NCBI GenBank assembly: GCA_051005235.1
Contig: JBPCJO010000045.1
Coordinates: 1,024 to 65,023, forward strand
Source: Candidatus Saccharimonadales bacterium
GTDB taxonomy: Bacteria > Patescibacteriota > Saccharimonadia > Saccharimonadales > 2-12-FULL-41-12
Direction: 5' to 3'
Length of the DNA stretch: 64,000 nt
Positions 418 to 39,252 of this stretch are shown here, piece by piece; the stretch's first letter is position 1; the number at the start of each line of letters is the position of its first letter. Below the pieces are notes generated by a model. It was given only the letters and a program-made list of their open reading frames with translations. It was not told the DNA's origin and ran no database searches. The translations under genes and the position numbers were made by a program.

Positions 418-595
418 TATTTCATATTGTAGCTCTCAACTTAGAGTTGAAACAATAGAAAAGGTTTCCGGAGAGCTCTCTGAACCTTGCTTGGTGGTGA
501 ACTATTGAGGCGTAAGGCAGTTTAATTGTGAAGCTTACTGTATTTAATGGAATGCTGATTATCCATACCATTAAGAAGTTGTTATAATTTATAGA

Positions 596-886
596 ATGAC
601 AGTCCAAGACCTGCAATTACCAATACCAATCGATGAGTTAAAAACCTTGCTGCAAGAACACGGGGTAGCCAAAGCATATCTGTACGGCAGTTACGCACGC
701 AACCAAGCAACAAAACAGAGTGATCTTGACCTATTGGTTGATCTGCAACCTGGCAAAACCTATATGGATCTGGGGGCATTACAATATAAGCTTGAGCAGC
801 GTGTACCAGGTGGTGTAGACATAACCACAAAATTAAATAAGCATTTTGAACCGTACATTAAACCAGATTTGATAGAAGTGCTGTAA
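596..886 (+). CDS. mntA: MNT-type minimal nucleotidyltransferase (antitoxin of HEPN/MNT pair)
   Basis: 96 aa. LYGSYARNQATKQSDLDLLVD matches the GS-x10-DxD nucleotidyltransferase motif. The stop overlaps the downstream HEPN start (TAATG). Confidence 0.8.
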   Translation: MTVQDLQLPIPIDELKTLLQEHGVAKAYLYGSYARNQATKQSDLDLLVDLQPGKTYMDLGALQYKLEQRVPGGVDITTKLNKHFEPYIKPDLIEVL

Positions 887-1221
887 TGCCTAGAGAGCCG
901 CTACCAAATCTAAAGTTTATTTTAGAAACACTACAGACAATCAAAAAGTTTACACCAAAAGATAAAATTGATTTTCTCAACGACCGAAACGTCCAAGACG
1001 CTACACTTATGCGCTTGCAAGATATTGGCGAACAGCTTTCTCGTATTAGAGATACCTTCCCAGAGTTTTACGAAGAAAACCATAGCGATGATTGGTATAA
1101 GCTGATTGGTTTGCGTAATATCATTTCGCATGGCTACCGAGAAATAGACTTTGAAATTATTTGGGACGTTGTGACTACAAAGCTTAGTGATTTTGAAAAC
1201 AATATAAAACGACTAGTCTAA
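886..1221 (+). CDS. hepT: HEPN-domain (DUF86) toxin
   Basis: 111 aa. LRNIISHGY is the R-x4-H HEPN RNase motif. Translationally coupled to the MNT gene. Confidence 0.8.
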   Translation: MPREPLPNLKFILETLQTIKKFTPKDKIDFLNDRNVQDATLMRLQDIGEQLSRIRDTFPEFYEENHSDDWYKLIGLRNIISHGYREIDFEIIWDVVTTKLSDFENNIKRLV

Positions 1222-1878
1222 ATACGTTGAACTTATTAGTTCTGCAAGTTGTGTGCCCGCGACATCGCCCTTTACTGGCGAATATCGCTTCTTAGTCATC
1301 TTCTTACCATTTCTTTCATAATCAATATCGGCGAAATAGACTTTGATTCCTTTTGCAAGCGGCTTAATCTTTGTCTTACCAAGAACACTGTGTACGTCTG
1401 TATTCTGCAAATGATAATGGACATGCGGTTGCAGCGAATTACCAGAATTACCGCATTCACCTAACTTTTGTCCAGATCTAACCATATCTCCAGCTTTGAC
1501 TATAGTCGAGCCTAGCCGTAAGTGCGCGATAAACGAATACTCATTCTTTGTATGCTCTATCAATATGTAATTACCGCCGGCCGCAAACCGATTTGTCTGG
1601 CCAGGCACGTTATCGCGAATACCGTTAACTGCCTCAATAACTTTACCGTCAGCGGGTGCTATCACATCCTGCCCAAAGACGTAGTAATCCTCGTTTTTGA
1701 GACCTCTTACTTTGTGCGATTCGCCATCTTTGCCATATCCAACAAAATCAAAAGCGTAGCGTTGCGCAGGTTCAATATGATGATAGTTTAGCTTTGCAGT
1801 ATCTCCACCACAATATGTAAACCAACGACCTTTGAAAGGTAATTTTAATGTGGTAGTGTGTCTCATTGTTAGCATCAT
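1213..1878 (-). CDS. M23 family metallopeptidase (no obvious signal peptide)
   Basis: 221 aa. GECGNSGNSLQPHVHYHLQ is the LytM/M23 HxH signature, and the preceding GDMVRSGQKLG segment is typical of M23. Confidence 0.75.
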   Translation of the reverse strand: MMLTMRHTTTLKLPFKGRWFTYCGGDTAKLNYHHIEPAQRYAFDFVGYGKDGESHKVRGLKNEDYYVFGQDVIAPADGKVIEAVNGIRDNVPGQTNRFAAGGNYILIEHTKNEYSFIAHLRLGSTIVKAGDMVRSGQKLGECGNSGNSLQPHVHYHLQNTDVHSVLGKTKIKPLAKGIKVYFADIDYERNGKKMTKKRYSPVKGDVAGTQLAELISSTYLD

Positions 1879-1914
1879 AGCACTATGATTTTGAGTTAGA
1901 CCAAACAGTACGCG

Positions 1915-3144
1915 CTAAATTATTATGACTTCTTTAGGTTTTGTATCTTGTGACGAGGTAGGTAACTTGATGGTAAACTTTGTGCCTTCGTTGATTTTGG
2001 AGGTTACGTCGATGCTTCCGTTGTGCAAATCTATAATTTTCTTGACCCAGTATAGGCCTAGGCCGGTTCCTGGCGTTGCCACAGAAAGTGGATTATCAAT
2101 GCGCGAAAATCTTTTGAACAGTTTCTTTTGATCTTTTTTGAGTATCCCTACGCCTGAGTCATCGATGCTTATGGTGGTTTGCGTTTTAGTCTGCTTAAGG
2201 CTGATTGTTATTGTCGCGCCGTTTTGCGAGTATTTGCTGGCGTTATCAAATAAGTTGTCTAGTACCATTCGCATCAGCTTAGTATCGAAGTCCGCGTTAA
2301 CACGAACGCCTGGCTTGTTAAACACCACGTTCTGTTTGCGCGCGTCAAATGTAATCACCTGTGCCAGCATAACGTCGTCGACCAGGTTAACGACATCGCA
2401 GCTAGTCTTTTCTAAGTAGACTTTCCCGGCGTCTACCCGGGCTACCCTTAGCAAATCTTCAATTATTTCTAATTGCCGGTTGTTGCTGAGGTTAGCATTT
2501 TCTAGCATATCCATTTGTTTTTTAGACAGCTTGCCCGCATAGCCCTCACGCAAAATCCCAATATACTGCTTAACAATTGTGGCCGGAGTACGGAGCTGAT
2601 GTGAGGCGAGAGCGATAAATTCATCTTTGGCGTCGCCGAGCGCATTTAATTTACGGTGCTGCTCGATTAAACCGGCGTTCATTTTGTTGGTATCGGCCGT
2701 AAGTTGTTTTTGCTCGGTAATATCTTGAAAGGCAAGCAGTATGAGCTGCTTGCTATCTATTTGCCGGGCGTTCAGCATCATCGTTTTGAGCCCAATGTCG
2801 GGGAATTTATGCGTAACTTCAAAGTCGTTAAACACTTTATGTTTTGGCAGTATGTTTTCTAGCAGCTCAACAAGCTTCGAAGACTTCCATTGGTTGTTGC
2901 CAAGTTTATAAATTAACTTGCCCTCGGTCTCTATTTTTATTACTTTGAATGTCTTATAAAAAGCCGTGTTTGCAGTTACGACGCACAGTTTTTTGTCCAA
3001 AATGATAAAAGGCTCTCGTATTGTGTCGGTAATTTCCTGATAATATACTAATAATTTTTTAAGTGTTTCAATGCTGCTGCTTTGGCGGTCAATTTTTTTC
3101 GCGATATTCTTAGTTAATTTAGCGGACATTCTTAACAGCACCAA
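1915..3144 (-). CDS. Cytoplasmic PAS-domain sensor histidine kinase (no adjacent response regulator)
   Basis: 409 aa. H-box ASHQLRTPAT, N-box DNLFDNASKY and G-boxes DDSGVGI / GTGLGLYWVKKII are present. The N-terminal part is PAS-like and has no TM segment. Confidence 0.85.
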   Translation of the reverse strand: MVLLRMSAKLTKNIAKKIDRQSSSIETLKKLLVYYQEITDTIREPFIILDKKLCVVTANTAFYKTFKVIKIETEGKLIYKLGNNQWKSSKLVELLENILPKHKVFNDFEVTHKFPDIGLKTMMLNARQIDSKQLILLAFQDITEQKQLTADTNKMNAGLIEQHRKLNALGDAKDEFIALASHQLRTPATIVKQYIGILREGYAGKLSKKQMDMLENANLSNNRQLEIIEDLLRVARVDAGKVYLEKTSCDVVNLVDDVMLAQVITFDARKQNVVFNKPGVRVNADFDTKLMRMVLDNLFDNASKYSQNGATITISLKQTKTQTTISIDDSGVGILKKDQKKLFKRFSRIDNPLSVATPGTGLGLYWVKKIIDLHNGSIDVTSKINEGTKFTIKLPTSSQDTKPKEVIII

Positions 3145-3304
3145 TTCTGTAGCGTCTGTAACGCTAAATCGAAATTTAGATATCTATGGTCATAGTCCAT
3201 GAACTGTTAACGCCTTTATAACTACTTAGTATGCCTTTTTGATGAACTATGTCTATGAAATACCTGACAGAATTTTTACGATATTTCGAACCTGGAATGT
3301 CTGT

Positions 3305-4105
3305 TTAGCCGAAAACTCTCTGGAATATCCAAATAATTGCAATGGTAGAGATAATGACCGCGACAATCTTTATGAGTAGTGGGTACCATGATTTGTTGCG
3401 TAGTAGGTAAATTACCGGTAGCGCCAGGGCTATGACAATTAGCTGGCCAAATTCGATACCAATGTTGAACGCCAGTAGAGATGAGACGAATTTATCGTCA
3501 GGCACATTTATCTCTTGCAAGAGCCCCGCAAAACCTAAGCCGTGAAACAAGCCGAAGAAAAATATTATGCCCAATTTGGACTTGGTATTTTTTATATATT
3601 TGTTATGCCTGAAGAAAACGGTGGCAATCGCCATGACAGCTATGGACAACGCAATTATCGGCTCGACAATCCTTGAACTTAATACCAACGTGCCAGTGCC
3701 TGCTAATACCAGGGTGAGGCTGTGCGCAAGCGTAAAGGTAAGGGTGTAGCGTAGAACATTCGCGACACCGGCAAATACCAACAATAGCGATAGCACAAAC
3801 AGAACATGATCCAACCCGCTCAAGATGTGGTGCACGCCGAGCCGTAAAAAGTCATAAAAGTTGTCAAAAAAGTTGGTATCTTGTTTGATAATTCTTATAA
3901 CGTCTTCTTGATTTTTAACTTTATCAGAAAGCTCTGGTGCGTTGCCTTCGATGTACTGCTTAATCTCTTCGGGCGAGGCATCGGGATTATTTTTTATATA
4001 GTCAGTCACGTTCTGCGGCAAAAGCTCGTGGGCCGATGCTAAAGCGGGCGTAAGTATAAAAAAGAAAGCCAGGGGTATAAATGCGTAAAGAATTATTTTT
4101 TTCAT
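3305..4105 (-). CDS. HupE/UreJ family membrane protein
   Basis: 266 aa. Signal peptide, then HHILSGLDHVLFVLSLLL, then several TM helices, as in HupE/UreJ. Confidence 0.7.
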   Translation of the reverse strand: MKKIILYAFIPLAFFFILTPALASAHELLPQNVTDYIKNNPDASPEEIKQYIEGNAPELSDKVKNQEDVIRIIKQDTNFFDNFYDFLRLGVHHILSGLDHVLFVLSLLLVFAGVANVLRYTLTFTLAHSLTLVLAGTGTLVLSSRIVEPIIALSIAVMAIATVFFRHNKYIKNTKSKLGIIFFFGLFHGLGFAGLLQEINVPDDKFVSSLLAFNIGIEFGQLIVIALALPVIYLLRNKSWYPLLIKIVAVIISTIAIIWIFQRVFG

Positions 4106-4109
4106 GATC

Positions 4110-5435
4110 TTATTTCAAGCGTTGTATTGCTTCGTCCGCTTCTTTCTTGTCGAGTAGTGAAAAATGTGATTCCAAAAAGTACGTATCGAGGCTTGTCGCT
4201 TTTTGCAGGTACATTGTAGCTTGGTCTTTCTGGCCTAGCTTTTCGGCGATTCTGCCGGCATGATACAAGATTACTGGCTCATGCTGACCTAAGATTAAGG
4301 CTTTACTAATATTTTCTTCAGCAGCAGTATAATTTTTGTTTCGATAGTAAGCCCAAGCTAGTGCGTCAAAGCTAAATATATTTGGACGAATAGCTACAGC
4401 TTTCTTAGCTAGTTCTAGTGATTGCTCAGCTTGCATATCTCGCTGAGACAAATATAACGATCGTTCATAGTCAGTATTGACGTTGGCTTTACTAGATTCA
4501 TCAAAAGCCAGATTTGCTAAATAATAACGGCTGTCGGCCTTATCGGCATCATTGTTTGACGCATAAACATCACCTAGGTTTGCGGCATACTGCGCAAGAG
4601 GCAGCCTAGTAAAAGCCTGATTGAAATAATCAACCGCTTTGTCTTTATCGCCGCGAGCAAAGGCTAGCCTACCAAGAGCCTCCAGCGCTGGTGGATAATC
4701 TGGTTCGGTCCGTAAGGCTTGCATGTATGTACGCTCGGCTTGGTTAAGATCAGACCTGGCTTGCAGCTTGCCGAGTTCTACTTGGCTGAAGGCAACATTT
4801 TCAGGAAACGACGAACCGGCACTGATTGCACTAACAAGTGCAGCTTTAGCACCGTCGATTTCACCGTATAATTCTCGCAAGTAAGCCACTCGGTTAAAGG
4901 CGCTGAGTTCAGGCTTTTTGTCTATCATTGTCTGAATAGATTGAGTAGCTTGATCATACATGCCGAGCTCTAGCTGTCCGTCGCCAATCAAGCCGTAGTA
5001 GGCTGCTTTATCAGGATTGATCTTGCTGGCCTTTTGCGACAACATCAGGCCTTTACTAAAGTCATGTAGACCGTAAGCCACACTAGCTTGTGCGGCAACC
5101 ACAGATTCATTATCAGGATTGATCTTGCTGGCCTTATCAAGCAACTCGTTACAACTACTATAAAGTGACGTGTCTGCTGTTTGACGCAGCTTTTGAAGAT
5201 AAAGTTGACAAAGGTCGGCATAACGAGTCGGATTTTGTTGATCGTTATCAAGACGGCTTTGTGCTTCTTTGATTAGTTTATCGATTTGATCAGTTTGAGC
5301 GGCTGTATTATTTCTATCTCTGGTTGAGTTTTGGATGGCGTAGATACTAAGCACAGCTAGCGGCAGTAAAACTGCGACTATTACGACAACTAACCATTTG
5401 CTGCGACCAATTTTATAAAAAACTTTTTTCGACAT
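4110..5435 (-). CDS. Membrane-anchored tetratricopeptide-repeat protein
   Basis: The track ORF begins at a TTG (5471). I prefer the ATG at 5435 (MSKKVFYKIG...). One N-terminal TM, then repeated A..Y...G..y....y..A...y..AL TPR-like units. Confidence 0.7.
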   Translation of the reverse strand: MSKKVFYKIGRSKWLVVVIVAVLLPLAVLSIYAIQNSTRDRNNTAAQTDQIDKLIKEAQSRLDNDQQNPTRYADLCQLYLQKLRQTADTSLYSSCNELLDKASKINPDNESVVAAQASVAYGLHDFSKGLMLSQKASKINPDKAAYYGLIGDGQLELGMYDQATQSIQTMIDKKPELSAFNRVAYLRELYGEIDGAKAALVSAISAGSSFPENVAFSQVELGKLQARSDLNQAERTYMQALRTEPDYPPALEALGRLAFARGDKDKAVDYFNQAFTRLPLAQYAANLGDVYASNNDADKADSRYYLANLAFDESSKANVNTDYERSLYLSQRDMQAEQSLELAKKAVAIRPNIFSFDALAWAYYRNKNYTAAEENISKALILGQHEPVILYHAGRIAEKLGQKDQATMYLQKATSLDTYFLESHFSLLDKKEADEAIQRLK

Positions 5436-5585
5436 GTCTACTTTAAACCTTGATAATGTTAACTTCGGCAAACTAGAGTTAGCAAATAGAGCCGAGTACT
5501 CGGCTCTATTATACCTGGGAGCAGACTTATTTGTTTACTATGCTTGCACTTAACGCTTTGTTAAGTGCCTTATGATCGAGTAGAT

Positions 5586-7157
5586 CTAGCTCTTTGATCG
5601 CTTAGCTACAGCCATTGCTACTACCATACCAAGGACTAGAGCGCCAAGGCCGATGAGTACTGCTGTAGTAGTAGATATGCCTGAATCATCTATGACAACT
5701 CCGTTTTTATCAGCTGGCTGGTTAGTAAGACCAGAAGTTGTTGCAAAACCACTTTCAGGTAAAGCAAGGTATGGGAAGTTATTACGGAACGGCTTGTCGT
5801 TACTGTCTACACCGTCACCAAGCTGAGTTGCAAGTGGATCAGCTTTAAAGTCTGTGTGAAAGATTGGATATGCGGCTCCAGCGACAGCTTGAATAGAGAT
5901 GTCCGTCACATCATCTGCTAGGCGTCGTCCATTTGGAAAACCTTGATTATCTTTTGCGAGTACACCAAGTCGGTTTGGACTCTTAGTTACTGGCACGGCT
6001 ACGTTCAAGCGAAGTTGCTCAGACGGTACGCCACCCGCTACTGCTGTAAGATCAGGAATTCCAGTAAGGTAGATTGCCACTAAATCATCGCGAGCTTCGG
6101 CTGAGCCGAACTTACCCTGGGGCGGTACTTTAACGTTATATAGTTTGTTTAGAAGTGTTCCTAGCTCTGGATTTGTTACTGCGTCCGCGAACTGAGCATC
6201 ATTAACTGGCTTCGAGCTGTTGAACAGATCTTTGGCTGCTAGTGGAGCAACAACTTCGTTTACAAGTGGTGCGCCAAGTCGTGAAACTTGTACGAACTCA
6301 CCATCGCTCTTTGAGGTTCCATCACCACCGAGCACTCTTGTACTCTGTCGTGCAGCAGTGGTCCAGCCACCGATTACGGCTGCAGGATCTTTAGCATCTG
6401 CAGGAACTGTGTTGCCACTAGTTAAGTCTTTAATAGGAACTTGCAAGGCAATACTTTGTACGCTAAAGCCTTTTAGTCCATCAGAGCCGCCCCCATTATT
6501 ACCTGGGACTTTACGAATAGTAAGTAAGTCGAATAGTCCACCAAGGTCAGCGAAGAATGGATCATCACTTTGACCAGCAAAAGTTGTCACACCATTAATT
6601 TCTTTGATAGCTTGTTTTTGAAGCTGGTCATAATTTGGAGTTGAAGTGGGTCCAATATTGCTTGGTGGAGTTGGAATATTCTCACCCATAACCACACTAC
6701 CATCTTTGGTTATTTTAGTAAGTGTGTAGGTTTGTTTGATGTTCCAATTAGGGTCATCAACGGATTTGATAGGACCGGTGTTATACAAGAAAGTCTTGCC
6801 ATCACCTACTTTTGTATTAAAAGTGTATCGGTAAGTTATGTCAGGCACAGCGTCGCCATTATTATCAATATTGATGTCATATTGCGCATTGTCATCGAAA
6901 GAATAGAAGTTTGGACCCCCTGGCGGATTCTGAAATGGCAAATAGTTAGCAATAAACGTAACAGTGTCAGGCTTATCTGGGCTGACAAATGAGTAGAAGT
7001 CTGTGCCATCTACCTTAGGATCACCACTAGTAAGTGGTGCTTCACGGTGACTAGAAGCCGACGTGCTGATTGGCTGTAGTGCGATTATACTCACAAACGC
7101 CATTAACAGCGTAACGAGTACAGCGTCTTTGATCCCTATATTTAGTGTTGTCTGCAT
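5586..7157 (-). CDS. DUF4331 family secreted protein with C-terminal membrane anchor
   Basis: SSHREAPLTSGDPKVDGTDFYSF directly follows the predicted signal peptide, which is the DUF4331 N-terminal signature. The C-terminus has a TM helix followed by KRSKS. The track start (7175) is a TTG. The ATG at 7157 is preceded by AAGGAG at a 9-nt spacing. Confidence 0.75.
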   Translation of the reverse strand: MQTTLNIGIKDAVLVTLLMAFVSIIALQPISTSASSHREAPLTSGDPKVDGTDFYSFVSPDKPDTVTFIANYLPFQNPPGGPNFYSFDDNAQYDINIDNNGDAVPDITYRYTFNTKVGDGKTFLYNTGPIKSVDDPNWNIKQTYTLTKITKDGSVVMGENIPTPPSNIGPTSTPNYDQLQKQAIKEINGVTTFAGQSDDPFFADLGGLFDLLTIRKVPGNNGGGSDGLKGFSVQSIALQVPIKDLTSGNTVPADAKDPAAVIGGWTTAARQSTRVLGGDGTSKSDGEFVQVSRLGAPLVNEVVAPLAAKDLFNSSKPVNDAQFADAVTNPELGTLLNKLYNVKVPPQGKFGSAEARDDLVAIYLTGIPDLTAVAGGVPSEQLRLNVAVPVTKSPNRLGVLAKDNQGFPNGRRLADDVTDISIQAVAGAAYPIFHTDFKADPLATQLGDGVDSNDKPFRNNFPYLALPESGFATTSGLTNQPADKNGVVIDDSGISTTTAVLIGLGALVLGMVVAMAVAKRSKS

Positions 7158-7414: not shown

Positions 7415-7696
7415 ATGAGAAATCCAAACCAATTAATACAGTCTATAGATTCACGTAATGCTATCAGAGCTGGGGTTGCCGCTCTTGCTCTAGCAGTAAG
7501 CGGGGCAGCGACTGCTGAAGCAGCACCAACCTCAGCCAATGTAATAAACTACGGCGGCGTGGCTCCCCAAATAGCATCAGCCTATCCTCCCGGTAAAAGT
7601 GGTCTTGCCCCTTTCATCCAAGATGCCACGGGTGCTGTTCACCTACCTAAGGGGCACTTCGATGGATTCATTGGCACCAATGTTAAGCCACAATAA
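7415..7696 (+). CDS. Small secreted hypothetical protein
   Basis: The ATG at 7415 gives MRNPNQ..., with the signal-like segment AGVAALALAVSGAATAEA. No recognisable domain. Confidence 0.4.
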   Translation: MRNPNQLIQSIDSRNAIRAGVAALALAVSGAATAEAAPTSANVINYGGVAPQIASAYPPGKSGLAPFIQDATGAVHLPKGHFDGFIGTNVKPQ

Positions 7697-7820: not shown

Positions 7821-7862
7821 CTTTAAAATCTAATTCGGTAGAGTACGTGCATTCAAATTGGA
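7821..7862 (+). repeat. Copy 1 of a ~40-bp direct repeat (core GGTAGAGTACGTGCATTC-N-AATTGGA)
   Basis: The 18-nt core at 7837..7854 is identical to 8524..8541, and the flanks are similar (ctttaaaatctaatt vs ctttatttaatt). Confidence 0.7.
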
Positions 7863-7895: not shown

Positions 7896-8465
7896 TTACT
7901 TTATTTGAATACTAGAATAAAGTTTTTCGAAGTCTTCTTTGGTTTTATCGGTAATATTTTCACGATTATTTACTAGCTCCAGCCTTACTATATATGTATC
8001 GGTCTCAATTAAGTATGTGTGTGTTGTTTGGCCGGATCTCTCTATTGTTAACTTTAAATTCTTGCGACCATTTTTATCAATTTCTGTACACTCATTGTTA
8101 TTAACAGAGAGGTCTAAGTATACGCTTGTCTCATATGAGCTGCATCGTAGGGATGAGAGCGGATTAACCGTCATCCTGACGAGAGCATTTGGTGGCCCAT
8201 TACAACTCGGTTTTTGTGTATTGGGGACAATGAACAGTATTATGTCTTCTCTCTCGGGGCAAGGTTGTATTCCCCATCCGTCAGGCAGTCGATAATTTAC
8301 TAAAGAATTAATATTTACTTCATTCTTTGCAACGCTCGGTGATGTACCGCTGGCATGCTTAGGCACGCCTTCTGGATCGCCTAAATCGTTACCCACAATA
8401 ATACCTATACCAAAAATTATTAAAACTAATAACACTAATAAAACTATCTTGCGAGCATATTTCAT
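7896..8465 (-). CDS. Hypothetical N-terminally anchored protein
   Basis: 189 aa. N-terminal TM helix KIVLLVLLVLIIFGIGIIVG, four Cys, no recognisable domain. Bracketed by the two repeat copies. Confidence 0.5.
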   Translation of the reverse strand: MKYARKIVLLVLLVLIIFGIGIIVGNDLGDPEGVPKHASGTSPSVAKNEVNINSLVNYRLPDGWGIQPCPEREDIILFIVPNTQKPSCNGPPNALVRMTVNPLSSLRCSSYETSVYLDLSVNNNECTEIDKNGRKNLKLTIERSGQTTHTYLIETDTYIVRLELVNNRENITDKTKEDFEKLYSSIQIK

Positions 8466-8510: not shown

Positions 8511-8549
8511 TCTTTATTTAATTGGTAGAGTACGTGCATTCTAATTGGA
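8511..8549 (+). repeat. Copy 2 of the ~40-bp direct repeat
   Basis: See copy 1. Lies between the start of ORF 7896..8465 and the hicA stop. Confidence 0.7.
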
Positions 8550-8615: not shown

Positions 8616-8801
8616 CTACAATTTTGATTGTCTGATGATCGACTTAAATGTGCCGAACGGTATTTCTTTCTTTGAGCTGGGCACAATAACCGTAGAGGAA
8701 CCTTTCCGATATTTTGCATGACTTCCGCGTTGATGCACAAAGGCAAAACCTTCCTTTTCAAGAACTTTAATAATTTCTTTTGAGGAGGGTAGTTTAGGCA
8801 T
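8616..8801 (-). CDS. hicA: HicA family mRNA interferase toxin
   Basis: 61 aa. LPSSKEIIKVLEKEGFAFVHQRGSHAKYRK is the typical HicA dsRBD-like signature with a catalytic His. Confidence 0.85.
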   Translation of the reverse strand: MPKLPSSKEIIKVLEKEGFAFVHQRGSHAKYRKGSSTVIVPSSKKEIPFGTFKSIIRQSKL

Positions 8802-9015
8802 GTTTTAGCCGAAGAGTGTGAAGAGTAGGATGGCTCACCTCAGTCTTAATAGACTGTATGGGAGTATCTTCAAGATAGAGCTCTAGCGCCTCGTGTAAGT
8901 TAGCCAAAGCTCCTTGCTCAGACTCACCAAAACTTGATACATCAATATCTAGGCATTGAGCAACAAAGTACTTGCCTTCCTGATACACAACTGTTTGTAG
9001 AGCTAGAGCTTTCAT
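8794..9015 (-). CDS. hicB: HicB-like antitoxin (UPF0150 fold, no DNA-binding extension)
   Basis: 73 aa. YQEGKYFVAQCLDIDVSSFGESEQGALANLHEALELYLE is HicB-like. Overlaps hicA by 8 nt. Confidence 0.7.
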   Translation of the reverse strand: MKALALQTVVYQEGKYFVAQCLDIDVSSFGESEQGALANLHEALELYLEDTPIQSIKTEVSHPTLHTLRLKHA

Positions 9016-9124
9016 ACTATGTAATTATACCACCAAAGCACCAGATTATACTCGAGCCTACCAACACCGATATAAATAAAGAAGAAACCAGAACATAGGT
9101 TCCAGTTTCATCTGTTTTATGCGA

Positions 9125-9320
9125 CTTGGTAGCGGGGGCAGGACAGCGCACTTTGTGCTTTTCCACTCTGGCATGCTCAAAGCAAGCTTTTGCGCGTGTC
9201 CTCGCTCCACCGAACCTGCGACTATCATCTTTTGCTAGCGCAAAATTTGAGTCGCAGAACCGGAGCCTAGTCTCAATGACCAAGAAAAAAGCTCCAACCT
9301 TTCGGCTGAAGCGTCTTTCT
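9125..9320 (-). repeat. tRNA-fMet-linked non-coding module ending in a duplicate of the tRNA 3' end
   Basis: 9127..9144 is an exact copy of 9321..9338, the tRNA 3'-terminal 18 nt including CCA. The 11-mer 9211..9221 copies tRNA 9340..9350. About 95 nt are homologous to the tRNA-Lys module, including the 21-nt identical core 9172..9192. Confidence 0.8.
9285..9312 (-). terminator. Intrinsic terminator of tRNA-fMet
   Basis: On the tRNA strand the sequence is GCTTCAGCC-GAAA-GGTTGGAGC: a 9-bp stem (two G-U pairs) with a GNRA loop, followed by TTTTTT. Confidence 0.7.
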
Positions 9321-9395
9321 TGGTAGCGGGGGCAGGACTCGAACCTGCGACCTTGTGGTTATGAGCCACACGAGCTGCCACTGCTCTACCCCGCG
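9321..9395 (-). tRNA. tRNA-Met (CAU), initiator type
   Basis: Hand-folded cloverleaf of CGCGGGGTAGAGCAGTGGCAGCTCGTGTGGCTCATAACCACAAGGTCGCAGGTTCGAGTCCTGCCCCCGCTACCA. It has a 1:72 mismatch (C1xU72), A11:U24, an acceptor stem nearly identical to E. coli tRNA-fMet, and an encoded CCA. Confidence 0.85.
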
Positions 9396-37795: not shown

Positions 37796-37872
37796 GGGCC
37801 CGTAGCTCAGCCGGTTAGAGCACCTGCCTTTTAAGCAGGGTGTCCTGGGTTCGAGTCCCAGCGGGCCCTCCA
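37796..37872 (+). tRNA. tRNA-Lys (UUU)
   Basis: GGGCCCGTAGCTCAGCCGGTTAGAGCACCTGCCTTTTAAGCAGGGTGTCCTGGGTTCGAGTCCCAGCGGGCCCTCCA is a clean cloverleaf with CCA encoded. Confidence 0.9.
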
Positions 37873-38056
37873 AATAAAAACCGCCAACATTTCGCTACCA
37901 GTTGGCGGTTTTTATTTGGAGCATCACTTGAGTCGAGAACCCAGATCTTTTGCGAAGCAAAGGAGGGTTCGGCGAAGAGAAGCCACGCACAAAAGCTTGC
38001 TTTGAGCATGGCTGAACGAAAGAAGGACGAAGTCCGCTGTCCCAGCGGGCCCTCCA
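37873..38056 (+). repeat. tRNA-Lys-linked non-coding module ending in a duplicate of the tRNA 3' end
   Basis: 38039..38056 is an exact copy of 37855..37872. GGGTTCG at 37965..37971 copies the T-arm at 37847..37853. The 21-nt core 37990..38010 is identical (reverse complement) to 9172..9192. Confidence 0.8.
37876..37914. terminator. Bidirectional intrinsic terminator
   Basis: AACCGCCAAC (37879..37888) pairs with GTTGGCGGTT (37901..37910). It is flanked by AAAAA upstream and TTTTT downstream. Confidence 0.8.
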
Positions 38057-38138: not shown

Positions 38139-38414
38139 ATGAAAACAGCTATACTAAATGTAAAAATTGATGAACAAGTAAAAAAGCAGGCGCAAGCCGT
38201 AGCTAGTTCTTTTGGTATTCCACTCAGCACACTCGTAAACGCATACCTTATGGAGCTGGCTGAAACGGGTCAGATACATTTTAGTGCAGTAGAGGTTATG
38301 ACACCTCAAATGGAAAAAATAATTGGGAAAGCTGAGAAAGAGATAAAAGCAGGCGATACTGTTGGGCCATTTAATACTGCCGAGGAGGCGGTTAATTATC
38401 TGAAGAAACTTTAG
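38139..38414 (+). CDS. RelB/DinJ family antitoxin
   Basis: NVKIDEQVKKQAQAVASSFGIPLSTLVNAYL is a ribbon-helix-helix DinJ-like N-terminus. Confidence 0.7.
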   Translation: MKTAILNVKIDEQVKKQAQAVASSFGIPLSTLVNAYLMELAETGQIHFSAVEVMTPQMEKIIGKAEKEIKAGDTVGPFNTAEEAVNYLKKL

Positions 38415-38415
38415 T

Positions 38416-38685
38416 ATGCTGTATCATCAAATTGACTTTACTAAAAGTTTTACCAGGCAGTTTAGACCCTTGCGAGAGAATCAGAAAAAACGCTTTTACG
38501 AGCGCTTGGAATTATTTAAGAAAAACCCCCATGATAGAGTCTTGCGTGACCATGCCCTAAAAGGCAAGTACAAAGGCTATCGTAGTGTTGATATTGAGGG
38601 CGATTTGCGTGCCTTGTATTATGTGAAAGGAGATAGGGTTGTAATTTTTGCATTTATTGGCTCACACGCCCAATTGTACAAATAA
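38416..38685 (+). CDS. RelE/YafQ family toxin
   Basis: 89 aa. HALKGKYKGYRSVDIEGDLRALY is a YafQ/RelE-like motif. It starts 1 nt after the antitoxin stop. Confidence 0.7.
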   Translation: MLYHQIDFTKSFTRQFRPLRENQKKRFYERLELFKKNPHDRVLRDHALKGKYKGYRSVDIEGDLRALYYVKGDRVVIFAFIGSHAQLYK

Positions 38686-38721: not shown

Positions 38722-39252
38722 ATGAATTCCACCGAGTTATTATTAAAAAAGTATCCCAACGTAAAAGTAGTCGAAGTTAGCCAAGAGCTTGATCAAGATA
38801 CCTTTAACGCCCAAAAGATTAAGCATGAACAGCGACAGGCTGAAGGCGGTGCTATTGGCACAGTCTGGCTCGAAGATGGCACAATTGTACTCACCAAGCG
38901 TTCAGGCCTACACGCAGGCTGGGCTTTAATCGGTGGAACTGTCGAGAACGGCGAAGCATTTGATGACGCCTTTTTACGTGAAGTCAAAGAAGAAATAGGC
39001 ATAAAAGCAACAATCGGACGCATAGTTATGCTAGAGCGTAAGATCTTTACTTCTCCAAATGCAGAGCAATTGCCAATGAATGTGGCGGTAATCGAGGCTC
39101 ATGCAGAAAAAGGCGAACAAATTACAAAAACAAAAGATGCTGAAATTGAAGGTCTTGAAGCCAAGGCTTTTGCAATTAATAGTTTGCCTTCTGAAATGAT
39201 ACTTAACGACTTGAATAAACTTGAATTGGTTGTTGCAGCCCGGCGAGTATAG
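38722..39252 (+). CDS. NUDIX hydrolase
   Basis: Nudix box GGTVENGEAFDDAFLREVKEEIG. Confidence 0.75.
   Translation: MNSTELLLKKYPNVKVVEVSQELDQDTFNAQKIKHEQRQAEGGAIGTVWLEDGTIVLTKRSGLHAGWALIGGTVENGEAFDDAFLREVKEEIGIKATIGRIVMLERKIFTSPNAEQLPMNVAVIEAHAEKGEQITKTKDAEIEGLEAKAFAINSLPSEMILNDLNKLELVVAARRV

Follow-up and report, generated by a model that had tools for sequence, protein, structure and literature searches.

The locus raises the question why an intact tRNA-Lys(UUU) gene should be followed, a short way downstream, by a second and exact copy of its own last 18 nt, and what the structured segment lying between the two copies might be. The DNA analysed (hereafter the window) is a 64,000-nt stretch of a Candidatus Saccharimonadales contig, and it holds two copies of this module, each behind a tRNA gene, one for tRNA-Lys and one for initiator tRNA-Met (fMet) (Table 1).

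Organisation of the module at tRNA-Lys and tRNA-fMet

The 18-mer GTCCCAGCGGGCCCTCCA occurs exactly twice in the window, and with up to three mismatches allowed two matches were reached in none of 100 shuffles. The exact duplicate, its breakpoint in common with the fMet locus, the GGGTTCG copy of 37847-53 and the 67-nt segment at A58 had all been described in the original prediction and were confirmed. The elements follow each other in the order tRNA, terminator palindrome (termA), X′, small hairpin, x1 (T-stem strand and TTCG), scaffold S and x2 (position 59 to CCA), with a structured length of about 130 nt in the fold and then the 18-nt tail. There is no ORF in the 166 nt between the Lys repeats, and no further x2 copies marking the far end of a larger island were found in the 64-kb window.

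TermA at tRNA-Lys has a perfect 19-bp stem (CCAAATAAAAACCGCCAAC / GTTGGCGGTTTTTATTTGG) with a 12-nt loop and, at its foot, the CCA of the tRNA (37870-72) paired with TGG (37917-19); it is considered bidirectional because it has both an A-tract and a T-tract. A 10-bp bidirectional terminator had been predicted here, which is right as to direction, but the 10 bp are only the centre of a palindrome with arms of 44 nt each (37845-37888 and 37901-37944, 77% complementary in the repeat search) that begins within the T-arm of the tRNA. Since the palindrome extends from the T-arm and CCA is paired with TGG, the segment between the terminator and the TTTGC/GCAAA hairpin is taken as X′, the 3′ arm of the palindrome, whose reverse complement is CTGGGTTCTCGACTCAAGTGATGCTCCA against the tRNA's own CTGGGTTCGAGTCCCAGCGGGCCCTCCA and whose terminal GAACCC pairs with the x1 copy. 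In the fold the small hairpin is the tip of this X′/x1 hairpin.

Covariance model R1 gives 73.4 bits for the fMet module and 72.9 bits for the Lys module, and their pairwise alignment has a mean column identity of 75%, in agreement with an earlier hand estimate of 70-75%. The 21-mer CAAAAGCTTGCTTTGAGCATG, which the two had been said to share, is present in the window only at 37990-38010 (+) and 9172-9192 (−). A gathering-score Rfam scan of the window returned tRNA matches only, and E-value scans of the module and nine other loci with Rfam 15 placed no family on the module; weak matches to miRNA and tmRNA_permuted families are noise. Literature searches gave no description of this module.

Table 1 Features of the Lys and fMet modules, in window positions
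Feature	Position	Strand	Evidence
tRNA-Lys(UUU) gene, intact, CCA encoded	37796..37872	+	ARAGORN; Rfam tRNA 72.5 bits
x1 (T-stem 5′ strand + TTCG) inside tRNA-Lys	37845-37853	+	sequence
A58 of tRNA-Lys	37854	+	sequence
x2 copy 1, tRNA-Lys positions 59-76	37855-37872	+	sequence
Terminator hairpin termA	37870..37919	+	sequence, terminator scan, inverted-repeat search
X′, inverted, diverged copy of the tRNA-Lys 3′ region	37917..37944	+	inverted-repeat search
Small hairpin CTTTTGC-GAA-GCAAAG, GCGAAGC-type GNA triloop	37947..37962	+	sequence, fold
x1 copy GGGTTCG, T-stem 5′ strand + T-loop up to G57	37965..37971	+	sequence
Scaffold S, 67 nt, in the place of A58	37972..38038	+	covariation, RNAalifold, covariance model R1
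Scaffold S, 5′ part GCGAAGAGA	within 37972..38038	+	sequence
Scaffold S, helix P_a	37981-37985 with 38009-38013	+	covariation, RNAalifold
Scaffold S, conserved core CGCACAAAAGCTTGCTTTGAGCA; C·A and A·A mismatches, 7-nt loop	37986-38008	+	
Scaffold S, purine-rich joiner GAACGAAAGAA	within 37972..38038	+	
Scaffold S, hairpin GGAC-GAA-GTCC	38025-38035	+	
Scaffold S, 3′ end GCT		+	sequence
x2 copy 2, exact tRNA-Lys positions 59-76 including CCA	38039..38056	+	repeat search
Initiator tRNA-Met gene, intact (x2 copy 1, 9321-9338)	9321..9395	−	ARAGORN, Rfam
fMet sister module, whole	9127..9324	−	repeat search, alignment, covariance model
fMet termA palindrome	9279-9324	−	
fMet X′	9251-9282	−	
fMet hairpin	9224-9250	−	
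fMet x1 copy, 12-nt T-stem/TTCG copy	9211-9222	−	
fMet scaffold, 66 nt	9145-9210	−	
fMet x2 copy 2	9127-9144	−	
Second terminator, after fMet x2 copy 2	9084-9109		

A family of tRNA-linked elements in Saccharibacteria

Pattern scans with the exact core pattern, which make for a biased sample, yielded about 25 additional non-redundant copies, each from a Candidatus Saccharibacteria genome or a metagenome contig of the same context. The module belongs to a hitherto undescribed family of composite elements linked to tRNA genes, which in this analysis was confined to Candidatus Saccharibacteria. The same architecture in more than 25 independent assemblies rules out an assembly artefact, and the shuffles together with the many further loci bear out the original claim of a specific, non-chance homologous module common to different tRNAs. 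At least 12 tRNA species carry it behind them (Lys-UUU, Lys-CUU, fMet, Asp, Asn, Pro, Arg-GCG, Glu, Ser-GGA, Ser-UGA, Ser-GCU, Tyr and Phe), the scaffold being homologous at all of them and x1, x2 and X′ being locus-specific.

The module starts 37-47 nt 3′ of CCA, the scaffold measures 45-80 nt and the insert about 135-180 nt at most loci; outside the Lys locus, x1 is a stretch of 7-12 nt matching the cognate tRNA. X′ has a counterpart in the fMet module and at other loci, a terminator lies 3′ of x2 at many loci, and the CCA:TGG extension of the terminator, counted by eye, is present at about 12 of 19 module-bearing tRNAs vs about 2 of 12 module-less ones. Among the 22 loci having a cognate tRNA, a 14-mer of x2 matches it with at most one mismatch at 17 and x2 is decayed at five, with more copies showing mismatches or an insert in x2. 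The length of x2 ranges from 15 to 19 nt but reaches 63 nt at L052/L064, where the repeat runs 45 nt beyond CCA into the terminator, and one subclass starts at position 61-63 instead of 59. At L031 and L052/L064 the terminator is inside the duplicated segment, at L031 together with X′.

Across the 51 tRNAs in the Saccharibacteria loci, a duplication of the 3′ end always coincides with the module, and none lacks the scaffold. The distance from the tRNA end to the end of the copy is 153-199 nt, bar two cargo-bearing outliers, one of 696 nt with a NUDIX-like ORF within the X′/x1 loop and one of 2807 nt with a decayed internal module copy. NUDIX-like ORFs, named by sequence inspection, are located at the X′/x1 hairpin loop in L005, L044 and L051. 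The orphan units L049, L053, L059 and L062 open with a decayed T-loop-to-CCA fragment, a layout that would be expected if newer insertions at the regenerated tRNA had displaced an older element.

Covariation is seen among these homologues, P_a and its extension having 46 double-change cells vs 18.9 ± 3.4 in shuffles, with none of 500 shuffles equal and slid controls at or below 10. The scaffold hairpin varies in length with compensatory changes (GGAC/GTCC, GCAC/GTGC, GGCC/GGCC), and the central helix is flanked by tandem G·A; these flanks and the purine-rich internal loops are conserved on the sense strand only, and the scaffold's GNA triloops occur solely on the tRNA-sense strand. Over the module copies GCGNAGC was counted 14 times in sense vs 0 in antisense and C-GNA-G 56 vs 17 times; there are two GNA-triloop hairpins per element, and the stem of the left terminator is not conserved. 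Folding energy shows no strand bias (sense better in 12 of 27 copies, Wilcoxon p = 0.45). Triloops of the cGNAg type are commoner in stable DNA hairpins than in RNA, and the structure signals of the module are strand-specific and akin to stable DNA mini-hairpins. No sigma-70-like promoter was found for the module, which has terminators on either side.

Orthologous fMet loci have the module in some cases and lack it in others, the difference being bounded by the repeat. In L072 tRNA-fMet is followed directly by AGCATAAGCA, the flank after the second x2 copy in the occupied L048, and at the fMet loci L067 and L073 the terminator alone is left, with an X′ remnant in L067 as well. The tRNA-Lys locus of a complete Saccharimonadia chromosome is without the module, as are most tRNAs. 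The terminator tracts and X′ of the Lys module are conserved among the window, L061 and L012, and this module is old and vertically inherited. At orthologous Lys loci x2 follows each genome's own tRNA substitutions, which, with the cognate loci above, upholds the expectation that the 18-mer copy follows tRNA identity; in an old module this needs ongoing turnover, gene conversion or selection. The scaffolds form no clusters by genome, thus giving no sign of recent bursts, although clustering by genome or by tRNA type is uninformative at this length.

Within ±5 kb the modules have no consistent association with an integrase, transposase, HUH enzyme or reverse transcriptase, and neither Pfam scans of the neighbouring window ORFs nor ORF clustering within ±5 kb around the modules revealed a recombinase; all that was found was unrelated serine-recombinase islands, at L053 and L075. 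The Pfam scans of window ORFs gave housekeeping genes, toxin-antitoxin pairs and NUDIX, the sole recurrence in the all-against-all ORF clustering (±5 kb) is a Saccharibacteria membrane protein of unknown function near some tRNAs, and a homologue search with the 146-aa neighbour of the Lys locus returned only the self-match. The accessory and defence genes lying 3′ of modules include toxin-antitoxin pairs, NUDIX, restriction-modification and others, and tRNA genes in these genomes are general insertion hot spots with large serine recombinase islands at or near them. In L052 a retron-type reverse transcriptase is encoded about 180 nt downstream of the module, with its own TTGACA/TATAAT promoter directly upstream. 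The window ORFs near either module have no RVT domain in the Pfam scans, as had been noted from the sequence at the outset. A free form of the element was not found in IMG/VR viral contigs by pattern scans (one chance match in one scan, none in another), nor in phages and plasmids by blastn.

Possible nature of the module

We tentatively read the module as a non-autonomous, strand-specific miniature integrative element targeting tRNA T-loops, and T-loop integration, one of the two mechanisms put forward originally, remains the best available reading. The element would insert in the T-loop of the tRNA gene between positions 58 and 59, and its left end would bring a replacement tRNA 3′ end (x2) and a terminator, so that the tRNA would stay functional; the 18-nt direct repeat would arise because the original 3′ end is pushed rightward by the insertion. 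The remainder of the element would comprise X′, the small hairpin as a cargo-tolerant site, x1 and the three-helix scaffold S. The latter may be a cis-acting structure read by a recombinase or transposase whose gene lies elsewhere in the genome, and recognised either as folded tRNA-sense single-stranded DNA or as RNA, with X′, x1 and x2 providing the match to the particular tRNA.

Mobility, the crossover position, a single-stranded intermediate and a trans-acting enzyme are inferred from the following. The module is found at at least 12 tRNA species with a homologous scaffold and locus-specific matching segments; fMet orthologues differ by its repeat-bounded presence or absence and the chromosomal Lys locus lacks it; all 3′-end duplications among the 51 tRNAs coincide with modules at tight spacing; and orphan units start with decayed T-loop-to-CCA fragments. 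Furthermore, the left edge of the repeat lies in the T-loop, the structure signals are strand-specific with no promoter found and terminators on both sides, and tRNA genes are insertion hot spots with accessory and defence genes 3′ of the modules.

Several observations are at odds with this reading. No enzyme is consistently linked within ±5 kb and no free form was found, and the scaffold occupies precisely the gap that separates x1 and x2, at the centre of what would be a classical integrase core site, an arrangement explained by no recombinase family that we know of. The Lys module is old and vertical with x2 still following its own tRNA, recent bursts are not seen in the scaffolds, and the reading gives no account of how an element would be re-specified for a new tRNA. 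There are also two kinds of empty fMet site, and either repeat copy could belong to the insert. It is unlikely, though it would explain the spread to at least 12 tRNA species by a swap of matching segments, that the module is the cis component of a programmable, pairing-guided site-specific DNA insertion system in CPR bacteria, in which the scaffold would bind a candidate trans-encoded recombinase or transposase, x1 and x2 (sense) and X′ (antisense) would pair with both strands of the T-arm/acceptor region, and the pairing would steer small elements and accessory/defence gene islands to that tRNA.

The other readings turn on whether the module acts as RNA, as a guide or not at all. A serious possibility, if not a probable one, is a functional structured RNA, the sense-strand module being transcribed by read-through of the tRNA terminator and folding into the X′/x1 hairpin, the three-helix scaffold and an 18-nt 3′ tail equal to the tRNA 3′ end. 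Its role might lie in tRNA metabolism or regulation, where it could serve, for instance, as a tRNA 3′-half mimic or decoy or as an aid to processing or folding; the decoyed enzyme or toxin would recognise the T-arm and acceptor end, with the scaffold as the protein-binding domain. The strong covariation of the central helix, the compensatory changes in the variable-length hairpin and the sense-only purine-rich internal loops and tandem G·A flanks speak for it, and so do the terminator after x2 at many loci, the co-variation of x2 with the cognate tRNA among orthologous loci and the vertical persistence at tRNA-Lys. On the other hand, no promoter-like site was found and the strong 19-bp terminator lies upstream, and the module is dispensable, being missing from orthologous loci and most tRNAs. 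Moreover, x2 is decayed at five of 22 loci and mismatched or interrupted in further copies, X′ and x1 are separable by cargo genes, minimum-free-energy folding has no strand asymmetry, Rfam families do not match, and cGNAg triloops are more typical of DNA hairpins. A further, improbable reading is a guide nucleic acid with the geometry of a TnpB omegaRNA or Cas12 crRNA, consisting of the scaffold and the 18-nt 3′ tail, with the T-loop GTTCGA directly 5′ of the target as the adjacent motif and X′ and x1 as extra matching segments, by which a trans-encoded effector would direct DNA, for instance islands of accessory genes, to the tRNA gene concerned. It would suit the geometry of about 130 structured nt plus an 18-nt tail, this tail being the only long tRNA-dependent segment and kept matched, and the accumulation of accessory/defence genes beside modules. 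For type V-K CRISPR-associated transposons the insertion point is a few tens of nt past the tRNA target, about as far as the module start at 37-47 nt after CCA. But TnpB, IscB, Cas12 and IS110 were not found near any copy (window; ±5 kb elsewhere), nor was a promoter, transposon ends or a short target-site duplication, the Rfam guide-RNA families do not match, and since the guide also fits the intact tRNA gene of the host, the nuclease would turn on the genome that encodes it.

A direct-inverted-direct layout (X - palindrome - X′ - palindrome - X) with junctions at palindromes is also what a passive by-product would look like, namely a functionless tandem-inversion duplication produced in highly transcribed tRNA genes when the template is switched at their terminator and GCGNAGC mini-hairpin, with the scaffold as a passenger, and the duplications that take in the terminator (L031, L052/L064) and X′ (L031) agree with this. 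It is distinctly improbable given the homologous covarying scaffold in all copies at many tRNAs, the lack of scaffold-less 3′-end duplications among 51 tRNAs and an x2 that stays matched across long divergence. Retroviral primer-binding sites are 18 nt long and correspond to tRNA position 59 to CCA, the same length as x2, and an element linked to reverse transcription, either as an antisense transcript primed by tRNA or as a retron-like single-stranded DNA template, could in addition make use of the DNA-type hairpin motifs in a single-stranded product and of the retron-type enzyme about 180 nt downstream in L052. We consider this highly improbable, because the enzyme was not found in the window or at loci other than L052, where it has its own TTGACA/TATAAT promoter, and because a tRNA primer at x2 would copy the downstream flank instead of the scaffold; the presence of x1 and X′ and the repeats that pass CCA or start at 61-63 also speak against it. 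The antisense HIV-type geometry, suggested originally as an analogy, is not supported in view of the sense-specific structure signals (GCGNAGC and C-GNA-G) as well. The other mechanism first put forward, copying templated by the 3′ end of the mature tRNA, is likewise not supported, since the T-stem 5′ strand (x1) is duplicated too, the 3′ region is also present in inverted form, and the repeat passes CCA by 45 nt at L052/L064 (63 nt in total) and starts at 61-63 in one subclass.

Several further candidates were tried and rejected. Core motifs of hammerhead and hairpin ribozymes do not fit and Rfam is silent, the junctions lack the motif of an archaeal-type bulge-helix-bulge intron and the tRNA 5′ part is missing, and a T-box riboswitch has no Rfam T-box match and the genes downstream are toxin-antitoxin, NUDIX, restriction-modification and others. 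A DNA uptake sequence would not be limited to two copies per 64 kb, and the frame of a protein-coding segment would shift with the variable-length hairpins. For a MITE or REPIN, there are two copies in 64 kb, both behind tRNAs and without terminal inverted repeats, and it is the tRNA 3′ end, not a short target duplication, that is repeated at the flanks.

If the module is mobile, it would be among the smallest site-specific integrative elements known and the first such element described for the reduced Saccharibacteria genomes of the candidate phyla radiation (CPR), with an unusual solution in the form of a spare tRNA 3′ end and a folded strand-specific recognition domain. It would then help to account for the gathering of accessory and defence genes at tRNA genes of these episymbionts and hint at an undiscovered recombinase reading a structured single strand. 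Should the module be a functional RNA, it would represent a new class of tRNA-matched structured RNA in bacteria whose RNA biology is, to our knowledge, almost unknown. Under either reading, the core CGCRCAAAAGCTNGCTTTGAGCA, with the T-arm halves of the respective tRNA on either side, is an easily searchable marker, and since genetically tractable Saccharibacteria now exist the question can be put to a test.

Comparison with known systems

The T-loop is a classical crossover sublocation of tRNA-integrating elements (Williams 2002; Islander, PMC4383910). As in tRNA-integrating islands and prophages with a tyrosine integrase (PMC4383910), an intact tRNA is regenerated, the far boundary of the insert is a displaced tRNA 3′ end that reaches from the T-loop to the end of the gene, cargo is possible between the repeats, and tandem accretion and decayed fragments occur; the island-type direct repeat of the tRNA 3′ segment beside the intact tRNA is found at Lys and at 17 of 22 cognate loci. 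The module differs in its insert of about 135-180 nt without an integrase, in the conserved, covarying 45-80-nt structure that exactly fills the interval from the T-stem strand to the displaced 3′ end, in having the tRNA 3′ region inverted as part of the unit and in its strand-specific structure signals. In a classical core site the T-stem half-sites adjoin the crossover, whereas here the scaffold separates x1/TTCG from x2 in every copy.

IS200/IS605 elements and PATEs share with the module strand-specific hairpins near both ends and a lack of terminal inverted repeats and of short target duplication. Further likenesses to the IS200/IS605 type are insertion 3′ of a short fixed sequence (in the module, TTCGA of the T-loop) and a size of 100-300 nt in non-autonomous copies, and the conserved structured right end followed by a flank-derived target-matching segment recalls TnpB omegaRNA logic. 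Unlike those elements, the module has neither TnpA nor TnpB detected (no Y1_Tnp among the scanned ORFs of the window), the sequence of its terminator, the left-end hairpin, is not conserved, it carries a copy of the 3′ part of its target, and there is no sequence or Rfam similarity.

Integron attC sites and the CTX phage attP(+) (PMC2727003, PMC3442271) are similar in that an imperfect palindrome folded on one strand mimics a double-stranded target, is in part unpaired or branched where exchange takes place, and is conserved more in structure than in sequence. Here the target is the tRNA T-arm and there is a conserved 23-nt core, without an integron integrase, Xer evidence or an R/L box consensus; no IntI-type gene is present in the scanned neighbourhoods, and GGTTCGA does not fit the attC core GTTRRRY by eye. 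A casposon at an archaeal tRNA-Pro 3′ end has a 15-bp duplication of which 5 bp overlap with the tRNA (PMC5137440), and casposons are kilobase-sized with terminal inverted repeats and a Cas1 gene (PMC5137440), features that are all lacking in the module.

The primer-binding sites of retroviruses and LTR elements and the 18-nt tRF-3 use the same tRNA unit, 59 to CCA. [quoted passage not shown]

The homing guide of type V-K systems is a short delocalised crRNA matching a tRNA gene. Like the module, it combines a structured handle with a spacer of about 17-18 nt to the 3′ part of a tRNA by a T-loop motif, and the mobile DNA lands a few tens of nt downstream of the tRNA. Cas12k, TnsB, TnsC, TniQ, a CRISPR repeat and transposon ends are absent from the module, which adjoins the tRNA and not the far end of a large transposon. 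The likeness to guide RNAs is one in geometry only, a scaffold followed by an 18-nt tail with a tRNA target preceded by GGTTCGA.

The duplicated tRNA ends and the anatomy of the module

The tRNA-Lys gene had been noted to be followed by an exact copy of its own 3′ end, and this is confirmed: the 18-mer GTCCCAGCGGGCCCTCCA (tRNA positions 59–76) occurs exactly at two sites of the 64-kb window (37855–72 and 38039–56), still at two sites only when up to 3 mismatches are allowed, and two matches were found in none of 100 shuffles. A second GGGTTCG (37965–71) and the 67 nt (37972–38038) taking the place of A58 were located as well, and the homologous unit proposed for the initiator tRNA-Met gene is indeed present, having the same build, a 66-nt insert, an exact 21-mer in common with the tRNA-Lys unit and absent elsewhere in the window, and a mean column identity of 75% to it.

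Such a unit is hereafter called a module, and the tRNA end represented in it consists of x1 (the T-stem 5′ strand and TTCG), A58 and x2 (positions 59–76). The order in the tRNA direction is the tRNA, a terminator hairpin, X′, a small hairpin, the x1 copy, the scaffold S and x2, with an additional terminator after x2 in many loci. In the terminator hairpin an A-tract pairs with a T-tract and the base usually pairs CCA with TGG, an extension counted by eye in about 12 of 19 module-bearing tRNAs versus about 2 of 12 module-less ones, one of these two having an X′ remnant beside it. X′ is an inverted, diverged tRNA 3′ region, with palindrome arms of 44 nt and 77% complementarity in the window, and the direct x1 copy matches the cognate tRNA over 7–12 nt (12 nt at fMet). 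X′ pairs with the x1 copy: in 13 of 26 copies the two contain exactly complementary stretches of 6 nt or more, an underestimate since hairpins in which the loop is very short or one base is mismatched are missed; for 10 of the 26 the complement is individually rare in shuffles.

Features at modules of the window and of other Saccharibacteria genome or metagenome loci (L-numbers)
Feature	Position	Strand	Remarks
tRNA-Lys(UUU) gene	37796–37872	+	ARAGORN, Rfam
RelB-type antitoxin, directly after Lys module	38139–38414	+	own promoter
YafQ/ParE-type toxin, same	38416–38685	+	own promoter
NUDIX hydrolase, same	38722–39252	+	own promoter
Initiator tRNA-Met gene	9321–9395	−	module of like build
Small HicB-like (DUF7387) protein gene, directly after fMet module	8794–9015	−	own promoter
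EcoRI-type adenine methylase and two more ORFs, 3′ of module	L022 ~2500–5800	+	
MzaB-like GHKL ATPase, 3′ of module	L031 ~580–2050	+	
Retron-type reverse transcriptase	L052 3617–4675	−	PADLOC RT_XIII 3.6e-40; Pfam RVT_1
AAA_5 ATPase, following it	L052 2521–3663	−	

Distribution and scaffold structure

A scan of bacteria and archaea, one genome for each species, with the exact core 18-mer gave 41 loci, 8 of which possess the flanking module, all 8 from Candidatus Saccharibacteria/Saccharimonadia, the others being isolated chance matches in unrelated sequence; a slightly degenerate 23-mer gave 24 loci in JGI metagenomes, including 21 true copies. Most contigs of the comparison set are short. In most loci a tRNA lies immediately upstream (ARAGORN), namely Asp, Asn, Lys-CUU, Lys-UUU, Pro, Arg-GCG, Glu, Ser (three isoacceptors), Tyr, Phe or fMet, and the last part of every such module is the 3′ end of its own tRNA. 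When 51 tRNAs in Saccharibacteria loci were searched for duplications of their last 14 nt (one mismatch tolerated, distance up to 3.5 kb), all those found coincided with modules. The 14-nt match is kept in 17 of the 22 loci having a cognate tRNA and decayed in 5, and the distance from the tRNA to the copy end is 153–199 nt, save in two cargo-bearing loci. No similar element was found in IMG/VR or in phage and plasmid collections, no Rfam family matches the module, and the literature search returned no description of it.

The core CGCRC-AAAAGCTNGCTTTG-AGCA is common to all copies, partly by ascertainment: the search relied on an exact pattern from the core, which exaggerates how conserved the core is and leaves too few divergent relatives in the sample. 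One divergent module (L055, 3386–3452, minus strand, between tRNA-Ser(GCU) and tRNA-Ser(UGA); 17.9 bits with the scaffold covariance model R1) has a longer AT-rich hairpin instead of the tip AAAAGCTTGCTTT and retains the CGCGCA...GAGCA internal-loop region. Among 25 distinct sequences, strong covariation was detected in the 5-bp helix closing the core and two pairs beyond a tandem G·A step, which was also examined with RNAalifold: 88% of cells are paired, and two-sided changes occur in 46 cells versus 18.9 ± 3.4 in shuffles (0 of 500 as high) and at most 10 in slid controls. A second hairpin of 4 to 11 bp shows compensatory changes (GGAC/GTCC, GCAC/GTGC, GGCC/GGCC), and a putative 4-bp helix of GGYG with CGCU may close the scaffold. 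In its 3′ part the scaffold seems to fall into "subclasses"; these are the result of divergence within orthologous loci.

Folding energy does not differ between the module strands. The motif GCGNAGC (3.8 per kb in modules versus a background of 0.35 per kb) is present 14 times on the tRNA-sense strand and absent from the antisense strand, C-GNA-G occurs 56 versus 17 times, and the purine-rich tandem G·A flanks are on the sense strand too. The cGNAg triloop is familiar chiefly from DNA mini-hairpins of exceptional stability. No sigma-70-like promoter was predicted for the fMet module on either strand, and the Lys locus gave a single weak antisense candidate.

Occupied and empty sites, decay and neighbouring genes

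Orthologous fMet loci were located via the upstream gene. In L072 tRNA-fMet is followed at once by AGCATAAGCA, a flank which in the occupied locus L048 comes after the second x2 copy; the empty and occupied states therefore differ by one repeat-bounded unit. Four further loci (L067–69 and L073) have tRNA-fMet and a terminator resembling the first one of the window, without the scaffold, and L067 retains the X′-like TGGTAGGGATCGAA. The window itself belongs to Candidatus Saccharibacteria/Saccharimonadia. The gene order around its tRNA-Lys is that of the complete Saccharimonadia chromosome OY970327.1 (L075; a neighbouring protein is 76% identical), where the Lys locus is without a module and has a large serine recombinase island instead. 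Shared terminator tracts and X′ show the Lys modules in the window, L061 and L012 to be orthologous and old; their x2 copies nonetheless follow the substitutions of their own tRNAs (CAGCGGG, CACTGGG and CAGTGGG), as a neutral scar would not.

Decay of x2 is seen in L012, L034, L045, L047 and L060 and mismatches in L003 and L005, and in L046 (~920–990, plus strand) x2 of a tRNA-Asn-type module is split by a 43-nt hairpin-forming insert (GTCCGGCCTC...CGGAGCCA). Three "orphan" units (L049, L053, L059) have a decayed fragment, T-loop to CCA, at their start. The repeat in L052 and L064 comprises 63 nt including the terminator, and L031 has, beyond the right copy, a terminator belonging to that copy and another X′. 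The X′–x1 loop of L005, L044 and L051 holds a NUDIX-like ORF (named by sequence inspection), and in L062 the exact x2 copy is 2.8 kb away from the tRNA, the interval containing genes, the remnant of a decayed module and a left copy that has diverged.

Apart from a membrane protein of unknown function, no protein family was found to recur next to modules. ORFs near the two window modules are RelB/YafQ, NUDIX, the HicB-like protein and housekeeping genes; a 189-aa ORF (7896–8465, minus strand) is flanked by a 26-nt direct repeat, 96% identical (7837–7862 and 8524–8549, with 7899–7919/8512–8532), an arrangement reminiscent of a small cassette or of an intergenic signal in two copies. In other loci, too, the DNA 3′ of modules carries accessory or defence genes: the methylase and the MzaB-like ATPase occupy positions consistent with tRNA-adjacent defence islands, and the reverse transcriptase lies ~180 nt past the tRNA-Ser(GGA) module and has a TTGACA/TATAAT promoter of its own in front. 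Genes for large serine recombinases (Resolvase and Zn_ribbon_recom) are found at or near tRNA genes in L075 (6217–7928, abutting the module-less tRNA-Lys and followed by many small ORFs) and in L053 (2–3.3 kb upstream of the module, between the "orphan" module and the tRNA). In L064, sub-threshold type III hammerhead ribozyme matches (1562–1619, 1969–2026 and 2654–2712, plus strand; 38, 38 and 30 bits versus a gathering threshold of 48.5) precede the module-bearing tRNA-Ser by 1.3–2.4 kb.

Possible nature of the module

The best fit, though not a compelling one, is tentatively a miniature non-autonomous element that would insert between tRNA positions 58 and 59, bringing its own x2 and terminator; a trans-encoded enzyme would recognise its conserved scaffold, probably as one folded strand. 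This reading would account for the spread over many tRNAs, the repeat-bounded polymorphism, the cargo, accretion and decay, the T-loop boundary and the absence of promoters; it leaves unexplained the missing enzyme, the scaffold position inside the would-be core site or the re-specification of the tRNA-specific segments. A functional sense-strand RNA mimicking the tRNA 3′ half, to which the scaffold covariation and the tracking of the cognate tRNA by x2 point, seems rather unlikely, as the module is dispensable, its copies decay and a strong terminator lies upstream. Functionless duplication by template switch is very improbable. We regard a guide nucleic acid homing to tRNA genes as improbable, and a reverse-transcription-linked element as hardly credible.

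The miniature-element reading is closest in mode of working to tRNA-targeted integrative islands and IS200/IS605-type miniature single-strand elements, and the geometry is reminiscent of omegaRNA/crRNA guides and of folded attC or CTX attP sites. The module does not appear to belong to any of these: the defining enzymes were not found among the neighbouring ORFs scanned, the core-site layout is wrong and the consensus boxes and covariance models are unmatched. Casposons, too, use the TΨC-loop palindrome of a tRNA gene, at the 3′ end of which a segment is duplicated (PMC5137440); beyond these two features they are unlike the module in all respects.

The 5′ parts of tRNA genes are duplicated as well: the 5′ half of tRNA-Phe in L060 (~7580–7650, minus strand) and the first 19 nt of tRNA-Lys with promoter-proximal sequence in L076 (~3770–3790, plus strand), each just upstream of the intact gene, a pattern suggestive of a second type of insertion or recombination at these genes.
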